From assembly GCF_016026235.1 (NCBI RefSeq), contig NZ_CP065613.1: a DNA stretch of 64,000 nt; one strand, written 5' to 3'. This DNA is from Escherichia coli (GTDB taxonomy: Bacteria; Pseudomonadota; Gammaproteobacteria; Enterobacterales; Enterobacteriaceae). The notes under the pieces are model-generated. The model made no database searches and was not told the origin of the DNA. It worked only from the letters and a program-made list of their open reading frames with translations. Positions 7,723 through 49,200 of the stretch are shown here, in pieces. The position numbers and the translations under genes were made by a program. The stretch's first letter is position 1. Each line of letters begins with the position of its first letter.

Positions 7723-7869
7723 GATTCGCCTGAACATGCCCTTTTTTCGTAAGTAAGCAACATAAGCTGTCACGTTTTGTGATGGCTATTAGAAATTCCT
7801 ATGCAACAACTGAAAAAAAATTACAAAAAGTGCTTTCTGAACTGAACAAAAAAGAGTAAAGTTAGTCGC

Positions 7870-7978
7870 GTAGGGTACAGAGGTAAGATGTTCTATCTTT
7901 CAGACCTTTTACTTCACGTAATCGGATTTGGCTGAATATTTTAGCCGCCCCAGTCAGTAATGACTGGGGCGTTTTTTA
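7870..7978 (+). ncRNA. spf: Spot 42 small RNA
   Basis: sequence GTAGGGTACAGAGGTAAGATGTTCTATCTTTCAGACC...CCCCAGTCAGTAATGACTGGGGCGTTTTTTATT matches remembered Spot 42 including intrinsic terminator; conserved position between polA and engB. Confidence 0.9.
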
Positions 7979-9006: not shown

Positions 9007-9248
9007 ATAGAGCGAGGACGCTAACAGGAACAATGACTCAGGATGAGGGTCAGGAGCGCCAGGAGGCGAAGACAGAGGATTGTCAGGAAGACAAACGTCC
9101 GGAGACGTAATTAAACGGAAATGGAATCAACACGGATTGTTCCGGCTAAAGGAAAAACAGGGTGTGTTGGCGGCCTGCAAGGATTGTAAGACCCGTTAAG
9201 GGTTATGAGTCAGGAAAAAAGGCGACAGAGTAATCTGTCGCCTTTTTT
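9007..9248 (+). ncRNA. csrC: CsrC small RNA (CsrA-sequestering)
   Basis: about 240 nt between engB and yihI with about 13 GGA motifs (CAGGA/AGGA in predicted loops) and terminal hairpin ggcgacagagtaatctgtcgcc plus T-run; matches known csrC location. Confidence 0.85.
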
Positions 9249-9317
9249 CTTTGCTTGCTTTCTGTTAGATTCCGCCGCAAATCTATACTGAATAAAACGG
9301 CTAAAAGACGAACCATT

Positions 9318-16006: not shown

Positions 16007-16076
16007 CTGCACCATGATGTGAATGTTGCACCAATATAGTGCTTCAATGGAAACATTAAGCACCATATTGGTGCAA
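16007..16076. promoter_or_regulatory. NtrC enhancer binding sites upstream of glnA
   Basis: dyad motifs TGCACCA-N-TGGTGCA family: gctgcaccatgatgtg, tgcaccaatatagtgc, gcaccatattggtgca. Confidence 0.7.
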
Positions 16077-16226
16077 TGACCTTTGGATAACCCTTTTTAT
16101 GCTCCGTGAAAGCGATCACAAAGGGACTCTGCAATACTTGTTTGCGGAGGATGTTTGTGATCCTGTTTTGTAGTGCGATTAATCCGTGTACAATAACGCG
16201 CTATTTCTAATGCCTGAGGCAAAGTT

Positions 16227-18050
16227 GTGATCGAAAAATTGCGTAATATCGCCATCATCGCGCACGTAGACCATGGTAAAACCACCCTGGTAGACAAGCT
16301 GCTCCAACAATCCGGTACGTTCGACTCTCGTGCCGAAACCCAAGAGCGCGTGATGGACTCCAACGATTTGGAGAAAGAGCGTGGGATTACCATCCTCGCG
16401 AAAAACACCGCTATCAAATGGAATGATTACCGTATCAACATCGTTGATACCCCGGGGCACGCCGACTTCGGTGGTGAAGTTGAACGTGTAATGTCCATGG
16501 TAGACTCAGTGCTGCTGGTGGTTGACGCATTTGACGGCCCGATGCCGCAAACGCGCTTCGTAACCAAAAAAGCGTTTGCTTACGGCCTGAAGCCGATTGT
16601 TGTTATCAACAAAGTTGACCGCCCTGGCGCGCGTCCTGATTGGGTTGTGGATCAGGTATTCGACCTGTTCGTTAACCTCGACGCGACCGACGAGCAGCTG
16701 GACTTCCCGATCGTTTACGCTTCTGCGCTGAACGGTATCGCGGGTCTGGACCACGAAGATATGGCGGAAGACATGACCCCGCTGTATCAGGCGATTGTTG
16801 ACCACGTTCCTGCGCCGGACGTTGACCTTGACGGTCCGTTCCAGATGCAGATTTCTCAGCTCGATTACAACAGCTATGTTGGCGTTATCGGCATTGGCCG
16901 CATCAAGCGCGGTAAAGTGAAGCCGAACCAGCAGGTTACTATCATCGATAGCGAAGGCAAAACCCGCAACGCGAAAGTCGGTAAAGTGCTGGGCCACCTC
17001 GGTCTGGAACGTATCGAAACCGATCTGGCGGAAGCTGGCGATATCGTGGCGATCACGGGTCTTGGCGAACTGAACATTTCTGACACCGTTTGCGACACGC
17101 AAAACGTTGAAGCGCTGCCGGCACTCTCCGTTGATGAGCCGACCGTTTCTATGTTCTTCTGCGTTAACACCTCGCCGTTCTGCGGTAAAGAAGGTAAGTT
17201 CGTAACGTCTCGTCAGATCCTGGATCGTCTGAACAAAGAACTGGTACACAACGTTGCGCTGCGCGTAGAAGAAACCGAAGACGCCGATGCGTTCCGCGTT
17301 TCTGGTCGTGGCGAACTGCACCTGTCTGTTCTGATCGAAAACATGCGTCGTGAAGGTTTCGAACTGGCGGTATCCCGTCCGAAAGTTATCTTCCGTGAAA
17401 TCGACGGTCGTAAACAAGAGCCGTATGAAAACGTGACTCTGGACGTTGAAGAACAGCATCAGGGTTCTGTAATGCAGGCGCTGGGCGAACGTAAAGGCGA
17501 CCTGAAAAACATGAATCCAGACGGTAAAGGCCGCGTACGTCTCGACTACGTGATCCCAAGCCGTGGTCTGATTGGCTTCCGTTCTGAGTTCATGACCATG
17601 ACTTCCGGTACTGGTCTGCTGTACTCCACCTTCAGCCACTACGACGACGTACGTCCGGGCGAAGTGGGTCAGCGTCAGAACGGTGTACTGATCTCTAACG
17701 GTCAGGGTAAAGCGGTCGCGTTCGCGCTGTTCGGTCTGCAGGATCGCGGTAAGCTGTTCCTCGGTCACGGTGCAGAAGTTTACGAAGGTCAGATTATCGG
17801 TATTCACAGCCGCTCTAACGACCTGACTGTAAACTGTCTGACCGGTAAGAAACTGACCAACATGCGTGCTTCCGGTACTGACGAAGCCGTTGTTCTGGTT
17901 CCGCCTATCCGCATGACTCTGGAACAAGCTCTGGAGTTCATCGATGATGACGAACTGGTAGAAGTAACTCCGACCTCTATCCGTATTCGTAAACGTCACC
18001 TGACGGAAAACGATCGTCGTCGCGCCAACCGCGCACCGAAAGACGATTAA
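16227..18050 (+). CDS. typA: translational GTPase TypA/BipA
   Basis: 607-aa ORF, GTG start; G-domain motifs ([21 protein letters not shown]) and EF-G-like domains. Confidence 0.97.
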
Positions 18051-18076
18051 TTTCGTTTTTTAGTCATAAAAAACCT

Positions 18077-18088
18077 GCCAGCGATGGC
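18077..18088. repeat. left copy of 12-bp target-site duplication GCCAGCGATGGC flanking IS4
   Basis: identical 12-mer at 19515..19526 immediately outside the other IS4 end. Confidence 0.85.
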
Positions 18089-19514
18089 TAATGCCGATCA
18101 GTTAAGGATCAGTTGACCGATCCAGTGGCTGTGTAAGAATCCGGAAACGCTCACTTGTTTCCGGATTTTTTTATGCACATTGGACAGGCTCTTGATCTGG
18201 TATCCCGTTACGATTCTCTGCGTAACCCACTGACTTCTCTGGGGGATTACCTCGACCCCGAACTCATCTCTCGTTGCCTTGCCGAATCAGGTACTGTAAC
18301 GCTACGCAAGCGCCGTCTTCCCCTCGAAATGATGGTCTGGTGTATTGTTGGCATGGCGCTTGAGCGTAAAGAACCTCTTCACCAGATTGTGAATCGCCTG
18401 GACATCATGCTGCCGGGCAATCGCCCCTTCGTTGCCCCCAGTGCCGTTATTCAGGCCCGCCAGCGCCTGGGAAGTGAGGCTGTCCGCCGCGTGTTCACGA
18501 AAACAGTGCAGCTCTGGCATAACGCCACGCCGCATCCGCACTGGTGCGGCCTGACCCTGCTGGCCATCGATGGTGTGTTCTGGCGCACACCGGATACACC
18601 AGAGAACGATGCAGCCTTCCCCCGCCAGACACATGCCGGGAACCCGGCGCTCTACCCGCAGGTCAAAATGGTCTGCCAGATGGAACTGACCAGCCATCTG
18701 CTGACGGCTGCAGCCTTCGGCACGATGAAGAACAGCGAAAATGAGCTTGCTGAGCAACTTATAGAACAAACCGGCGATAACACTCTGACGTTAATGGATA
18801 AAGGTTATTACTCACTGGGACTGTTAAATGCCTGGAGCCTGGCGGGAGAACACCGCCACTGGATGATACCTCTCAGAAAGGGAGCGCAATATGAAGAGCT
18901 CAGAAAACTGGGTAAAGGCGATCATCTGGTGAAGCTGAAAACCAGCCCGCAGGCACGAAAAAAGTGGCCGGGACTGGGAAATGAAGTGACAGCCCGCCTG
19001 CTGACCGTGACGCGCAAAGGAAAAGTCTGCCATCTGCTGACGTCGATGACGGACGCCATGCGCTTCCCCGGAGGAGAAATGGCGGATCTGTACAGTCATC
19101 GCTGGGAAATCGAACTGGGATACAGGGAGATAAAACAGACGATGCAACTGAGCAGGCTGACGCTGAGAAGTAAAAAGCCGGAGCTTGTGGAGCAAGAGCT
19201 GTGGGGTGTCTTACTGGCTTATAATCTGGTGAGATATCAGATGATTAAAATGGCGGAACATCTGAAAGGTTACTGGCCGAATCAACTGAGTTTCTCAGAA
19301 TCATGCGGAATGGTGATGAGAATGCTGATGACATTGCAGGGCGCTTCACCGGGACGTATACCGGAGCTGATGCGCGATTTTGCAAGTATGGGACAACTTG
19401 TGAAATTACCGACGAGAAGGGGAAGGGCCTTCCCGAGAGTGGTAAAGGAGAGGCCCTGGAAATACCCCACAGCCCCGAAAAAGAGCCAGTCAGTTGCTTA
19501 ACTGACTGGCATTA
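18089..19514 (+). mobile_element. insertion sequence IS4 (1426 bp) with 18-bp imperfect terminal inverted repeats
   Basis: terminal IRs TAATGCCGATCAGTTAAG (18089..18106) and CTTAACTGACTGGCATTA (19497..19514); single DDE transposase ORF; 12-bp direct repeats; length equals canonical IS4. Confidence 0.9.
18173..19501 (+). CDS. insG: IS4 transposase InsG
   Basis: ORF 18155..19501; start taken at [12 protein letters not shown]4-family DDE transposase. Confidence 0.85.
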
Positions 19515-19526
19515 GCCAGCGATGGC
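19515..19526. repeat. right copy of 12-bp target-site duplication GCCAGCGATGGC flanking IS4
   Basis: identical to 18077..18088; followed by GG and a T9 run that is the 3' half of the disrupted typA terminator. Confidence 0.85.
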
Positions 19527-19704
19527 AGGTTTTTTTTTGCCTGTCGTGAGCGCACACCAATGCGAGTATCTCCCTTATAAGTCTGTGGTTACGTCAATAG
19601 AGAGCTTTGTCACAATTATCTGCAAAGTCATACGCCGTTAATTGCTTTCTTTTTTGGCGTAAGCGTAAGATGCTTCATCTGGTTTAAACCAAAAGGATTA
19701 AACA

Positions 19705-20415
19705 ATGGCGGAGAATCAATCCACCGTAGAAAATGCAAAAGAGAAACTGGATCGGTGGTTGAAAGATGGCATCACCACACCGGGTGGAAAACTCCCTTCA
19801 GAAAGAGAGCTGGGAGAACTGCTGGGCATTAAACGTATGACGCTGCGCCAGGCGTTGTTGAACCTCGAGGCAGAATCCAAAATCTTCCGTAAGGATCGTA
19901 AAGGGTGGTTCGTGACCCAGCCGCGATTTAATTACAGTCCAGAGCTGTCGGCGAGCTTTCAGCGGGCTGCAATTGAGCAAGGGCGGGAACCTTCCTGGGG
20001 GTTTACCGAGAAAAGCCGTACCAGCGATATTCCCGAGACGCTCGCGCCACTGATTGCAGTGACACCATCAACTGAACTCTATCGCATCACCGGCTGGGGG
20101 GCGCTGGAAGGACATAAAGTTTTCTATCACGAAACATATATTAATCCTGAAGTTGCTCCGGGTTTTATTGAACAACTTGAAAACCACTCATTTTCTGCAG
20201 TCTGGGAAAAGTGCTACCAAAAAGAGACGGTAGTAAAAAAATTGATTTTCAAACCCGTCAGAATGCCGGGCGATATCAGCAAGTATCTTGGCGGTTCTGC
20301 GGGTATGCCAGCGATCTTAATTGAAAAGCATCGCGCCGACCAGCAAGGCAATATTGTCCAGATAGATATTGAATATTGGCGATTTGAGGCCGTAGACCTC
20401 ATCATTAATCTGTAG
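19705..20415 (+). CDS. yihL: GntR-family transcriptional regulator YihL (HTH plus UTRA domain)
   Basis: 236-aa ORF; synteny downstream of typA. Confidence 0.85.
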   Translation: MAENQSTVENAKEKLDRWLKDGITTPGGKLPSERELGELLGIKRMTLRQALLNLEAESKIFRKDRKGWFVTQPRFNYSPELSASFQRAAIEQGREPSWGFTEKSRTSDIPETLAPLIAVTPSTELYRITGWGALEGHKVFYHETYINPEVAPGFIEQLENHSFSAVWEKCYQKETVVKKLIFKPVRMPGDISKYLGGSAGMPAILIEKHRADQQGNIVQIDIEYWRFEAVDLIINL

Positions 20416-22860: not shown

Positions 22861-23553
22861 TCAGAAGAAATACTTCGTCCCGATACGAATCTGGTTTTGC
22901 TCGCGGTGGTACGGTTCCACGTTGCGATCTAACCAGCGCAATTCAATATAGGGCAGCCAGTGCTCGTTAATGCGGTAACGGAAGGTGTTAGTGATTTCCC
23001 AGTGATGCTTCGTGCCATTGCCGCTATTGAAATCATTAATGTTATAAAAATAATGCGGCTCAAAGGTATATGAGAACTTATCGGTAATAATAAAGTTCCA
23101 GTAGTTGCCAATCTCGTAGCTGTCATTATTATCCAGATCACCGTTTAAATCGGTTGAGCTGTAGTTATTATGGTTAAAACGGTTGCGTACTGTCAGGTTA
23201 AACCACGGAGTAAATTTGTAGTTAACATCCAGATAAACAGCACCACCCGAACCGATACTCTTATCATTAATTAAGCCACCGGGCTGGATGGTTAATTTAT
23301 CGGTTGGTTTAAATAACGGATACCAGCCTTCAATTTCGTTATATCCATGTTTAAGTTCATCTTCTCGCTGAAAGGTGTAGGTATTGGTTAACATAATACC
23401 CGCGCCCATATCGAAGTTATAACCCACACGTAGCATAACCTCGCCCTGATCGGAGGCGAGATTATATGCCTCCCTGTTTTCGACGTATGCGCCAGCGAAT
23501 ACTGAGGCAGAGGTCAGAGAAGATAATAAAATTATTGCATTAATATTTTTCAT
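22861..23553 (-). CDS. ompL: outer membrane porin OmpL
   Basis: ORF 22861..23619; start taken at MKNINAIILLSS signal peptide; beta-barrel with C-terminal KYFF. Confidence 0.85.
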   Translation of the reverse strand: MKNINAIILLSSLTSASVFAGAYVENREAYNLASDQGEVMLRVGYNFDMGAGIMLTNTYTFQREDELKHGYNEIEGWYPLFKPTDKLTIQPGGLINDKSIGSGGAVYLDVNYKFTPWFNLTVRNRFNHNNYSSTDLNGDLDNNDSYEIGNYWNFIITDKFSYTFEPHYFYNINDFNSGNGTKHHWEITNTFRYRINEHWLPYIELRWLDRNVEPYHREQNQIRIGTKYFF

Positions 23554-23619
23554 AATAAGTCCATTTTTAAACGTAGGGAGGCCGCCACCCACCAGGATGG
23601 AAATAGCGGCTATTGACAT

Positions 23620-46270: not shown

Positions 46271-49200
46271 TTACACCTTTTCCACATTCACAAGGAAGGA
46301 CTTAAACTCCGGCGTCTGCGTGTTCGCATCACCAACGAATGGCGTTAACGTATTGGCAATAAAGCCTTTTTTAGCTACGCCTTCATAACCCCAGTGAATC
46401 GGAATACCGATGGTATCGATATCTTTGCCGTTCGCTTTCAGCGTGCGAATACGTTTGGTCACCACCGCTTTGGCCTTGATATAGCCACGGTTGGAGGAGA
46501 CTTTCACGGTATCGCCCTGGGCAATGCCAAGTTTATTCGCCAGCGACTCCCCGATTTCCACAAACTGCTCTGGCTGCAAAATCGCGTTCAACAGCGCGTG
46601 TTTGGTCCAGTAGTGGAAGTGCTCGGTCAGACGATAGGTGGTTCCGACATACGGGAACTTATCGGCTTTACCCAATGCTTCGGCGTCGTCTTTAAAGATA
46701 CGTGCAGCCGGGTTCGAGATAACGTTTGGATGCAGCGGGTTAGTTCCCAGCGGCGTTTCAAACGGCTCGTAGTGTTCCGGGAACGGACCTTCCGCCATCT
46801 TATCGAGGGCAAACAGACGCCCCATGCCTTCCTGCTGCATGATAAACGGCCCGACGCCGCTGCCCGGAGGCGCTGCGCTGTAGTCCGGAATATCCCAGCC
46901 GGTCCACTTAGTGCCGTCCCATTTCAGCAACTGACGCTTCGGATCCCACGGGTTACCCTGCGGATCTGCGGAGGCGCGGTTATACAGAATGCGGCGGTTA
47001 AGCGGCCATGCCCATGCCCAGCCCAGCGTGTTACCGAGGCCAGACGGATCGGCGTTATCACGACGCGCCATCTGGTTGCCTTCCGGCGTCCAGCTACCGG
47101 CGAAAATCCAGCAACCACAGGAAGTTGTACCGTCATCGCGCAGTTGGGCGAACGAGCTAAGTTGTTGGCCTTTCTTGACGATAACCGCACCGGTTGCCGG
47201 ATCGGTAATATCGGCCAGCGCCTTACCGTTACTCTCCATCGCCACTTCTTCTGAAGATGGCTCATGCGGAATGGCGTAGTTCCAGGTCATGTTCAGCACC
47301 TGGTCCGGGTTCGCGCCACCCTGTTCGGCATACATCTTGCGCAAGCGCAGGAAGATACCGGAGAGGATCTCGCCGTCAGTCAGCGCAATCCCCGGGGCGT
47401 CCGCACCTTTCCAGTGCCACTGTAACCAGCGACCTGAGTTAACGATAGAACCGTTCTCTTCCGCGAAGCAGGTCGATGGCAGACGGAACACTTCGGTCTG
47501 GATCTTCGACGAGTCAACTTCGTTCAGCTCACCGTGGTTCTGCCAGAAGTTAGAGGTTTCAGTGTTCAGCGGGTCGATGGTGACGAGGAACTTCAGTTTC
47601 GACAGACAACCGATCACTTTGTTTTTGTTCGGGAATGAGGCAACAGGGTTAAAGCCCTGGCAGATATAGCCATTGACCTTGCCCTCTTTCATCATCTCGA
47701 AGTATTGCAGGACGTCGTAGCCTTTATCCCACTTCGGCAACCAGTCAAAGCCCCAGCTATTTTCCGCCGTCGCTTTATCACCAAAGAAGGCCTTCATCAT
47801 AGAGACGAAGAATTTCGGGTAGTTGCCCCAGTAGTTTACCTGGCCTTCCAGCAGCGGTTTTGGCGTGTTGGCGGTAAGGTAGGTTTGCAGATCGGTCTGC
47901 TTCTCGCTTGGCAGCGTCATGTAACCTGGCAGGCTCTGCGACAGCAGCCCCAGGTCCGTCAGCCCCTGAATATTGGAGTGACCGCGCAGGGCGTTAACGC
48001 CGCCGCCAGCCATCCCCATGTTACCGAGCAGCAGCTGGATCATCGCCATCGTACGAATGTTTTGCGCACCAACGGAGTGTTGCGTCCAGCCGAGGGCATA
48101 CAGGAACGAGGCAGTTTTATCGTGAGCACTGGTTTCTGCGATGTATTCGCAGACTTTCAGGAACGCGTCTTTTGGCGTACCACAGATGTTTTCAACCACA
48201 TCTGGCGTGTAGCGGGAAACGTGCTGTTTCAGCAAGTTCCACACGCAGCGCGGATGTTGCAGCGTGGTATCGCGTTTGGCGAAGCCGTTTTCGTCCAGTT
48301 CATAAGTCCAGGAGGATTTATCGTACTTGCGTTTTTCCGCGTCGTAGCCGGTGAACAGGCCATCTTCAAAGCCGTAATCCTCACGCACGATCAGGCTGGC
48401 GTTGGTATAGGCTTCGGTGTATTCGCGGTTGAATTTTTCATTGTTCAGCAGGTACAGCAATACGCCTGACAGGAAAGCAATGTCAGTACCGGAACGAATA
48501 GGGGCATAGTAGTCAGCCACCGCCGCCGTACGCGTAAAGCGAGGATCGATCACAATCAGCTTCGCGCCATTGTGAATTTTGGCTTCCATCGCCCAGCGGA
48601 ACCCGACCGGGTGAGCTTCAGCGGCGTTACCGCCCATCACCACGACGAGGTTGGCGTTCTTGATGTCGACCCAGTGGTTGGTCATCGCACCGCGACCAAA
48701 TGTTGGAGCAAGACTTGCTACCGTTGGTCCGTGTCAGACACGCGCCTGGTTGTCGACCGCGAGCATACCCAGCGCGCGGGAGAATTTTTGCGTTAAATAG
48801 CCGGTTTCGTTACTCGACGCGGAAGCACACAGCATCCCGGTGGAGAGCCAGCGGTTAACAGTCACGCCTTCGGCGTTTTGCGCAATGTAGTTAGCATCGC
48901 GGTCTTCTTTCATCAGTTTGGCGATGCGATCAAACGCCTCTTCCCAACTGATTTGCTGCCATTTATCAGAACCTGGCGCACGGTATTCCGGAAACTTCAG
49001 ACGGCTTTCGGAGTGGATGAAATCCACCAGGCCAGCGCCTTTCGGACAAAGTGCACCGCGGTTGACCGGGTGATCCGGATCGCCTTCGATATGGAAGATA
49101 GATGCTTTGGCGTTTTTTGCTCCGTCACCGAGGCTGTACATCAACAGCCCACAGCCTACGGAACAATAGGTGCAGGTATTACGGGTTTCGCGGGTGCGCA

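Follow-up and report, generated by a model that had tools for sequence, protein, structure and literature searches.

An IS4 insertion in the typA terminator of Escherichia coli and the target sites of IS4

Structure of the typA-yihL locus

The window analysed here is a stretch of 64,000 nucleotides from E. coli (contig NZ_CP065613.1). It contains typA (bipA) on the + strand at 16227-18050, with its TAA stop codon at 18048-18050. The next gene downstream is yihL, which encodes a GntR-family regulator (19705-20415, + strand). Both genes were placed using the list of open reading frames and the annotation of matching E. coli records. Between them lies a complete IS4 of 1426 bp (18089-19514), identified by comparison with the K-12 IS4. 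Its transposase gene is on the same strand as typA (+), and yihL begins 190 bp past the element. No second IS4 copy was found in the window.

IS4 is bordered by a 12-bp target-site duplication, GCCAGCGATGGC, present as direct repeats at 18077-18088 and 19515-19526; the two copies are identical at 12 of 12 positions (100%). Each duplicate forms part of what remains of a transcription terminator. The left remnant (18068-18088, + strand) consists of A6 (18068-18073), the outer stem CCT (18074-18076) and the left duplicate. The right remnant (19515-19538, + strand) consists of the inner 4-bp stem and the loop, followed by AGG (19527-19529) and T9 (19530-19538). Removal of IS4 and one duplicate gives AAAAAACCTGCC-AGCGAT-GGCAGGTTTTTTTTT, which starts 24 nt after the typA stop codon; the full rejoined site is AAAAAACCTGCCAGCGATGGCAGGTTTTTTTTT. 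This empty site folds at -18.6 kcal/mol (z = -5.0), and none of 200 shuffled sequences folds as well. RNAfold gives a G+C-rich stem of 7 bp with a 4-nt loop, CCUGCCA-GCGA-UGGCAGG, and A-U pairs extend the stem. The site has the sequence features of an intrinsic terminator: a G+C-rich hairpin and then U9, just past the stop codon. An alignment covering this sequence up to and including the T-run is obtained for nearly all E. coli genomes. An Rfam search of the typA-yihL interval gave no match.

Neither junction retains a competent terminator. The left junction alone folds at only -6.5 kcal/mol (z = -0.55), no better than shuffled sequences, and the right junction has only a 4-bp stem (GCCA/UGGC) 3 nt ahead of the U-run. 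As the initial annotation had described, the insertion is simple and precise: it lies in the terminator dyad and has duplicated 12 bp, and this holds to the base. Its account of a split terminator also stands, except that the stem and loop measure 7 bp and 4 nt rather than 6 and 6.

The empty site also exists in nature. E. coli FDAARGOS_943 lacks IS4 at this position; there the 12 bp is present once and the left flank continues straight into the right one. These flanks match the window at 100.000%, the left one along 1900 bp and the right one along 1912 bp, and a longer comparison of about 48 kb gives 99.93-99.96% identity. Apart from base substitutions, the two sequences differ in this region only by the IS4 in the typA terminator and by two IS1 insertions. 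The claim that a hairpin reappears when the flanks are rejoined is thus supported both by the fold and by a natural empty site. The perfect duplication and the absence of the element from a near-identical strain also show that the insertion is recent, as had been proposed.

Identity of the element

The terminal inverted repeats of the element are 18 bp long, imperfect, and start with TAATGCC. The left repeat, TAATGCCGATCAGTTAAG (18089-18106, + strand), matches the reverse complement of the right repeat, TAATGCCAGTCAGTTAAG (19497-19514, + strand), at 16 of 18 positions. Both ends of the element are identical to those of K-12 IS4. The transposase ORF (18173-19501, + strand), assigned from its translation and from Pfam and NCBIfam matches, encodes 442 amino acids and is closed by a stop codon, with no internal stop. 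The 12-bp duplication falls within the 11-13 bp reported for IS4, which is about one helical turn. All of the IS4 hallmarks listed in the initial annotation (inverted repeats, open transposase frame and duplication) are therefore present.

Compared with IS4 of K-12 (insG, NC_000913 4502090-4503515), 8 of 1426 nucleotides differ (0.56%; 99.4% identity). The transposase differs from K-12 InsG at 6 of 442 residues (1.36%; 436 identical); isoforms are defined by an amino-acid divergence of less than 2% (PMC2266710). The protein contains the Pfam domains Nterm_IS4 (E = 7.6e-33) and DDE_Tnp_1 (E = 1e-31), and it scores 303.7 bits against NCBIfam NF033592, which has a cut-off of 115. The Y-2-R-3-E-6-K motif, which defines the IS4 family (PMC2266710), is intact and can be read in the translation. 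Judged by the small number of nucleotide and amino-acid differences, the two sets of family matches and the motif, the element is an isoform of IS4. The original identification thus agrees with both the reference alignment and the family model.

Two of the transposase substitutions, A112V and L403F, are private to the window copy; they are absent from all 38 other copies examined. The nearest IS4 copies are found in the enteroinvasive strain CFSAN029787. They show two differences, both nonsynonymous in the window copy, and these are A112V and L403F. No identical element was found among 5,426 complete E. coli genomes, and an exact-protein look-up in a large protein collection, with the 442-aa form and with a 448-aa form starting at TTG, gave no match. 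The ends, the reading frame and the motif are intact, yet the two private substitutions are present; this copy may be active, but the 'likely active' of the initial annotation is too strong.

Hairpins within IS4 and transcription of the locus

Since the insertion splits the terminator hairpin, transcription of typA must enter IS4. On the strand entered in this way there is a terminator-like hairpin 47-84 nt inside the element (18135-18172, + strand). It has 14-bp arms (18135-18148 and 18157-18170) and a T7 tract (18166-18172), and it ends at the ATG of the transposase gene. In sequence it shows all the features expected of an intrinsic terminator. It folds at -23.5 kcal/mol (z = -6.5), and none of 200 shuffles is as good. 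A pattern scan for terminators misses this hairpin because the extension of its stem absorbs the T-run; folding was used instead. The stretch is conserved in seven other copies (the K-12 copy and L001-L006, which are copies read at typA terminators of other genomes), the sole change being one loop base in L005.

A second terminator-like hairpin faces inward from the right end (19475-19510, - strand). It has an 11-bp stem (19510-19485) and the tail TCTTTTTCGG, and it overlaps the right inverted repeat. This hairpin was listed by the terminator scan; it folds at -19.1 kcal/mol (z = -4.2). According to these folds, whichever way the element is oriented, transcription coming in from outside encounters a terminator-like structure in its first 90 nt or so. 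On the + strand, the hairpin at 19485-19510 has no U-run and only the 4-bp remnant precedes T9; there is no good terminator before yihL on this strand.

A candidate transposase promoter is found at 18113-18140 (+ strand): TTGACC, a 16-nt spacer and TG-n-AAGAAT. It comes from a consensus scan only, and its match is at chance level, as the scan of the region returned 2 sites where 1.4 were expected by chance. It is the only promoter-like site before the transposase gene. Transcription from it is predicted to start near 18147, within the left arm of the hairpin; speculatively, a transposase mRNA made from it would for this reason escape the hairpin. At the right end of IS4, the consensus scan detected no promoter-like site that faces outward.

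The left hairpin and its T7 tract are predicted to serve as a surrogate typA terminator, located about 85-95 nt past the old stop point. The 3' untranslated region of typA, about 45-50 nt long with the native terminator, would then reach about 120 nt, and little transcription would be expected to extend into the transposase gene. The initial annotation had proposed that typA transcripts read into the element. The left terminator is indeed lost, but read-in would cover only the first 47-84 nt, before the hairpin and T7 at which transcription is expected to stop. An effect of the insertion on yihL is possible but unsupported; the functional consequences were probably overstated.

A different outcome would be regulatory disruption, in which read-through reaches the transposase gene and yihL-yihM, the stability of typA mRNA or the expression of yihL is altered, and transposition is activated. 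The crippled folds of both terminator halves fit this outcome, as does the lack of a good + strand terminator between the transposase gene and yihL. However, a strong hairpin with T7 stands 47-84 nt inside the element on the typA strand, and the consensus scan gave no outward-facing promoter-like site at the right end. Dozens of natural isolates also maintain IS4 at this site, some in one orientation and some in the other, and this speaks against a large cost. Disruption on this scale is unlikely. Termination at the hairpin carried by IS4 fits these observations better.

Target sites of IS4

IS4 sites were collected by exact-protein look-ups with the K-12 transposase sequence and two other variants, and the K-12 copy was included. 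These queries were used because the window transposase is unique. The result is 24 distinct sites from a handful of IS4-rich genomes; it is a sample and not a census. The sites share a frame (n = 24) which consists of an A-run, 3 nt, a duplication of 11-14 bp, 3 nt and a T-run, and this usually lies in an intrinsic terminator hairpin. Counted outward from the duplication, positions 4-8 are occupied by A (by T on the right arm), and positions 5 and 6 have it in 44-46 of the 48 arms. Eleven of the 24 sites have exactly 3 nt separating each tract from the duplication, and 17 have 3-4 nt. The strict-gap pattern has a background of 0.3% per position, which gives P ~7e-22. Seven sites deviate from gaps of 3-4 nt; several are not palindromic. 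The duplication begins with C in 38 of 48 arms, and with G at the typA site in the window.

The length of the duplication varies with the distance between the tracts. In sites with a 3-nt gap on each side, the duplication measures 12, 13 or 14 bp when the tracts are 18, 19 or 20 nt apart, respectively. Because duplication length follows tract spacing in this way, the data suggest that each tract sets the position of the cut next to it.

Approximately two thirds of the sites are textbook G+C-rich hairpin terminators, and in these the loop lies at the middle of the duplication. Sites adjoin the 3' ends of eno, adhE, rpoD, gapA, crr, ssb, raiA and other genes. Several of the 24 are occupied in unrelated genomes; the terminators of typA, rpoD, eno, adhE and raiA recur.

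The typA terminator, A6-CCT-(12 bp)-AGG-T9, is a perfect match to the frame. When the IS-free window was scanned, it was the only sequence to fit the frame with a duplication of 11-14 bp. Only two perfect palindromes within such a frame are present in the IS-free window, the typA and CsrC terminators. The CsrC terminator (9217-9246) has its tracts 22 nt apart, outside the observed 18-21 nt, and it was dropped for that reason as a test case for a predicted hotspot. The initial annotation had treated the position of the element in the typA terminator as a notable accident. As IS4 selects exactly such sites, the placement is ordinary: it represents normal target choice at a recurrent hotspot.

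It could be argued that IS4 reads structure rather than the A and T tracts, and that the target is an extruded cruciform or a single-stranded terminator hairpin. The large share of G+C-rich palindromes agrees with this, and symmetric complementarity at the inner positions is 0.6-0.75. However, the most invariant positions are 5 and 6 of the tracts, which exceed those of the stem, and it is tract spacing that duplication length follows. The non-palindromic sites (the native K-12 site and sites L010, L015, L025 and L035) each retain at least one tract, and most retain both. Targeting driven by structure is therefore improbable. Since the non-palindromic sites keep one or both tracts, the A and T tracts, and not the hairpin, appear to be the common denominator of IS4 sites; they represent a strong preference and not an absolute requirement.

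Recurrent insertion at the typA terminator

The junction between typA and IS4 in the orientation of the window is found in 54 of 5,426 complete E. coli genomes. IS4 in the opposite orientation at the same base, detected with a chimeric query in which IS4 was reversed, is found in 16 of the 5,426. The IS-free typA-yihL sequence is matched over at least 80% of its length in 4,351 genomes. At least 70 public genomes already list the element beside typA as 'IS4-like element IS4 family transposase'.

Eight occupied copies were read: the window copy, L001-L006 and L028. All eight have a 12-bp duplication at the identical position, and their flank haplotypes differ. Three versions of the duplication are present, GCCAGCGATGGC, GCCATCGCTGGC and GCCATTGCTGGC, and the loop alleles are AGCGAT, ATCGCT and ATTGCT. 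The two main loop alleles are also common in genomes without the insertion; ATCGCT is the commonest empty allele, with many 100% matches. In L003 and L004 the AGCGAT allele holds IS4 in the opposite orientation. The allele of L006 is ATTGCT. The flanks of occupied genomes diverge from those of the window by 0.7-3.7%. As the occupied sites fall on three loop alleles, several independent insertions are indicated, and the sequences point to at least five hits on the same 12 bp. The window copy is a further independent and recent event, since the occupied genomes differ from it in their flanks and its nearest relative is empty.

Alternatively, a single ancient insertion could have spread by descent and recombination, with the opposite copies arising by inversion across inverted arms of 39 nt. 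Such arms exist: 18068-18106 and 19497-19535, which comprise stem, duplication and IS ends, are 90% complementary. In the frame of the element, moreover, L001, L005 and L028 have the same duplication as the window. Inversion of the whole duplication-IS4-duplication unit was nevertheless rejected, because many unoccupied sites carry ATCGCT and because a given allele is not tied to one orientation. As both main alleles occur empty, the opposite-orientation copies represent separate insertions. The empty nearest relative of the window and the divergence of the other occupied flanks also stand against a single origin, and the flank haplotypes partly show that occupied genomes are scattered among empty ones. 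A single ancient event is very unlikely, and repeated independent insertion is the better account. A last alternative is chance placement, the implicit view of the initial annotation: IS4 would have little or no site preference, and the hairpin regained on its removal would be fortuitous. The typA locus viewed in isolation would allow this. It is refuted by at least 70 other genomes that carry IS4 at this 12-bp target, with both orientations and three loop alleles represented, and by a frame common to 24 distinct sites, and it retains practically no probability.

Proposed mechanism and significance

The locus is probably best explained by a recent, simple transposition of IS4 into a preferred target, with a hairpin of the element restoring termination and with a near-neutral effect on typA and yihL; we hold this with good confidence. 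IS4 selects targets of 11-14 bp that are set off by 3 nt from an A-run on one side and a T-run on the other, and it would make staggered cuts about 3 nt inside each tract. The duplication would then be centred on the dyad, and its length would be set by the spacing of the tracts, because the cuts lie at that distance. Intrinsic terminators with an upstream A-run are the commonest natural sequences of this form. At typA, the split terminator lets transcription into IS4, where it would stop at the hairpin and T7 at 18135-18172. The same hairpin would shield the transposase gene from outside transcription. Near-neutrality for typA and yihL would be expected as a consequence, since typA transcripts would be stopped by the hairpin that the element brings with it.

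A broader reading is that IS4 is a dedicated 'terminator-swapping' element, which homes to terminators framed by A and T tracts, cuts 3 nt inside each tract so that the target sets the length of the duplication, carries inward-facing replacement terminators at both tips and keeps its transposase gene insulated. Whichever way it was inserted, the upstream gene would regain termination. This is possible, though we lean slightly against it. If it were correct, it would explain how IS4 can build up behind highly expressed essential genes (typA, rpoD, eno, gapA, ssb and adhE) without apparent cost.

IS4 and its target preference are already published, and the finding is of a known kind. Three modest points may go a little beyond the literature: the spacing rule (a duplication 6 bp shorter than the distance between the tracts); the catalogue of terminators behind highly expressed genes that are hit repeatedly; and the predicted replacement terminators at both ends of IS4. 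For genome annotation, the window copy is a routine IS4 copy that needs no special flag. An IS4 behind a gene should be taken neither for an accident nor for a sign of selection for altered expression, because the choice of site is built into the element. Shared occupancy is also a poor phylogenetic marker, since the typA, rpoD, eno, adhE and raiA terminators are recurrent hotspots. If the hairpins carried by the element do terminate transcription, IS4 would be a natural case of a mobile element that makes good the regulatory damage of its own insertion. This modest idea would bear on the low-cost expansion of IS elements in Shigella and EIEC-like lineages.

Comparison with known systems

IS4 has reportedly been found in the pheST attenuator, with AAA-N20-TTT as the consensus of its target. 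Conserved left and right arms of the IS4 target have been described (De Palmenaer, Siguier & Mahillon 2008, PMC2266710). The present sites share with the published specificity the A and T arms that flank a duplication of about one helical turn, and also the terminator or attenuator hairpin as a target; the window locus is a different one. The survey adds that the length of the duplication, 11-14 bp, tracks tract spacing, and it lists the recurrent terminators.

The IS4 of K-12 has the same length (1426 bp), the same ends and a 12-bp duplication. Its location is different, and its transposase differs from the window copy by six amino acids. At its native site, AAA and TTT tracts 20 nt apart flank the duplication; unlike the typA site, it has no hairpin.

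Bacterial class C group II introns are said to insert just after intrinsic terminators. They share with IS4 the use of a terminator stem-loop as a safe harbour. In contrast to IS4, they are retroelements which recognise a hairpin in single-stranded DNA, insert downstream of it and make no duplication.

The transposase genes of IS10 and IS50 are reportedly protected from outside transcription. As may hold for IS4, a hairpin forms only in transcripts that come from outside, just before the start codon of the transposase gene. The hairpin of IS10 and IS50 blocks translation, whereas that of IS4, together with its T7 tract, resembles a full intrinsic terminator and may act as one.

Several elements home to extragenic palindromes known as REP: IS1397, ISKpn1, ISPpu9/10 and ISRm22 (Tobes & Pareja 2006, PMC1525189). 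Their target is a repeated sequence and not a unique terminator framed by A and T tracts, and most belong to other families. ISRm22, however, is a member of the IS4 family, and in these elements, as in IS4, homing to a palindrome spares genes.

Terminators as IS4 targets

E. coli strains vary in the loop sequence of the typA terminator. Three alleles (AGCGAT, ATCGCT and ATTGCT) are found among the window, four other IS4-occupied typA terminators (L001, L005, L006 and L028) and the empty typA-yihL sites, and the stems are conserved across all three. The window carries two copies of the loop, at 18080-18085 and 19518-19523. ATCGCT, the commonest allele, is the exact reverse complement of AGCGAT; this suggests that a minute hairpin-mediated inversion, by template switching, gave rise to the reversed loop, rather than two independent point changes. 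An origin by IS4 insertion, followed by inversion and then excision, is conceivable but unsupported.

One and the same terminator holds IS4 in different genomes at each of adhE-tdk (L019 and L033), eno (L022 and L030), opgH-yceK (L020 and L037), raiA (L021 and L031) and rpoD-mug (L023 and L041). These five terminators are thus candidates for further IS4 hotspots. At the raiA copy in L031, the IS4 flanks do not share a duplication, a sign that IS4 copies may have recombined with one another. Within the window, the only perfect A-run/palindrome/T-run besides the typA terminator is the CsrC terminator at the 3' end of that RNA (9217-9246, AAAAGGCGACAGAGTAATCTGTCGCCTTTT; Rfam match to CsrC at 9007-9260). 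Its tract spacing is 22 nt, which exceeds the 18-21 nt of the clear IS4 sites seen.

The IS4 element itself has inward-facing, terminator-like hairpins at both tips, which are putative terminators. The left hairpin (18135-18172, plus strand) ends exactly at the transposase ATG; the right one lies at 19510-19475 on the minus strand. Besides CsrC, Rfam matches in the window include the sRNA ES222 (16038-16145, plus strand, 133 bits), which lies between glnA and typA, shortly before the start of typA. The others are Spot 42 (7860-7978), a SECIS element on the minus strand (48681-48739) and two copies of naRNA4 (59429-59591).

IS4 variants and strain comparison

The nearest variant to the IS4 copy in the window differs by 2 nt and is found on pCFSAN029787_01, a 294 kb plasmid of enteroinvasive E. 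coli (EIEC; L040, NZ_CP011417.1, 148569-149994). There it interrupts an IS66 tnpA gene, at a target site again framed by A and T tracts; the same variant is also present on the chromosome of the host strain. This hints at a Shigella/EIEC-like lineage as the origin of the window. The window strain and the near-identical strain FDAARGOS_943 (L039) differ mainly in IS content. In FDAARGOS_943, an IS1 takes the place of 390 bp (window 22941-23330) of a KdgM-family porin gene; the window has this gene whole (ORF 22861-23619, minus strand). FDAARGOS_943 also carries an IS1A insertion at the site corresponding to window 39368-39377. Such a difference is typical of an IS-expanding lineage.
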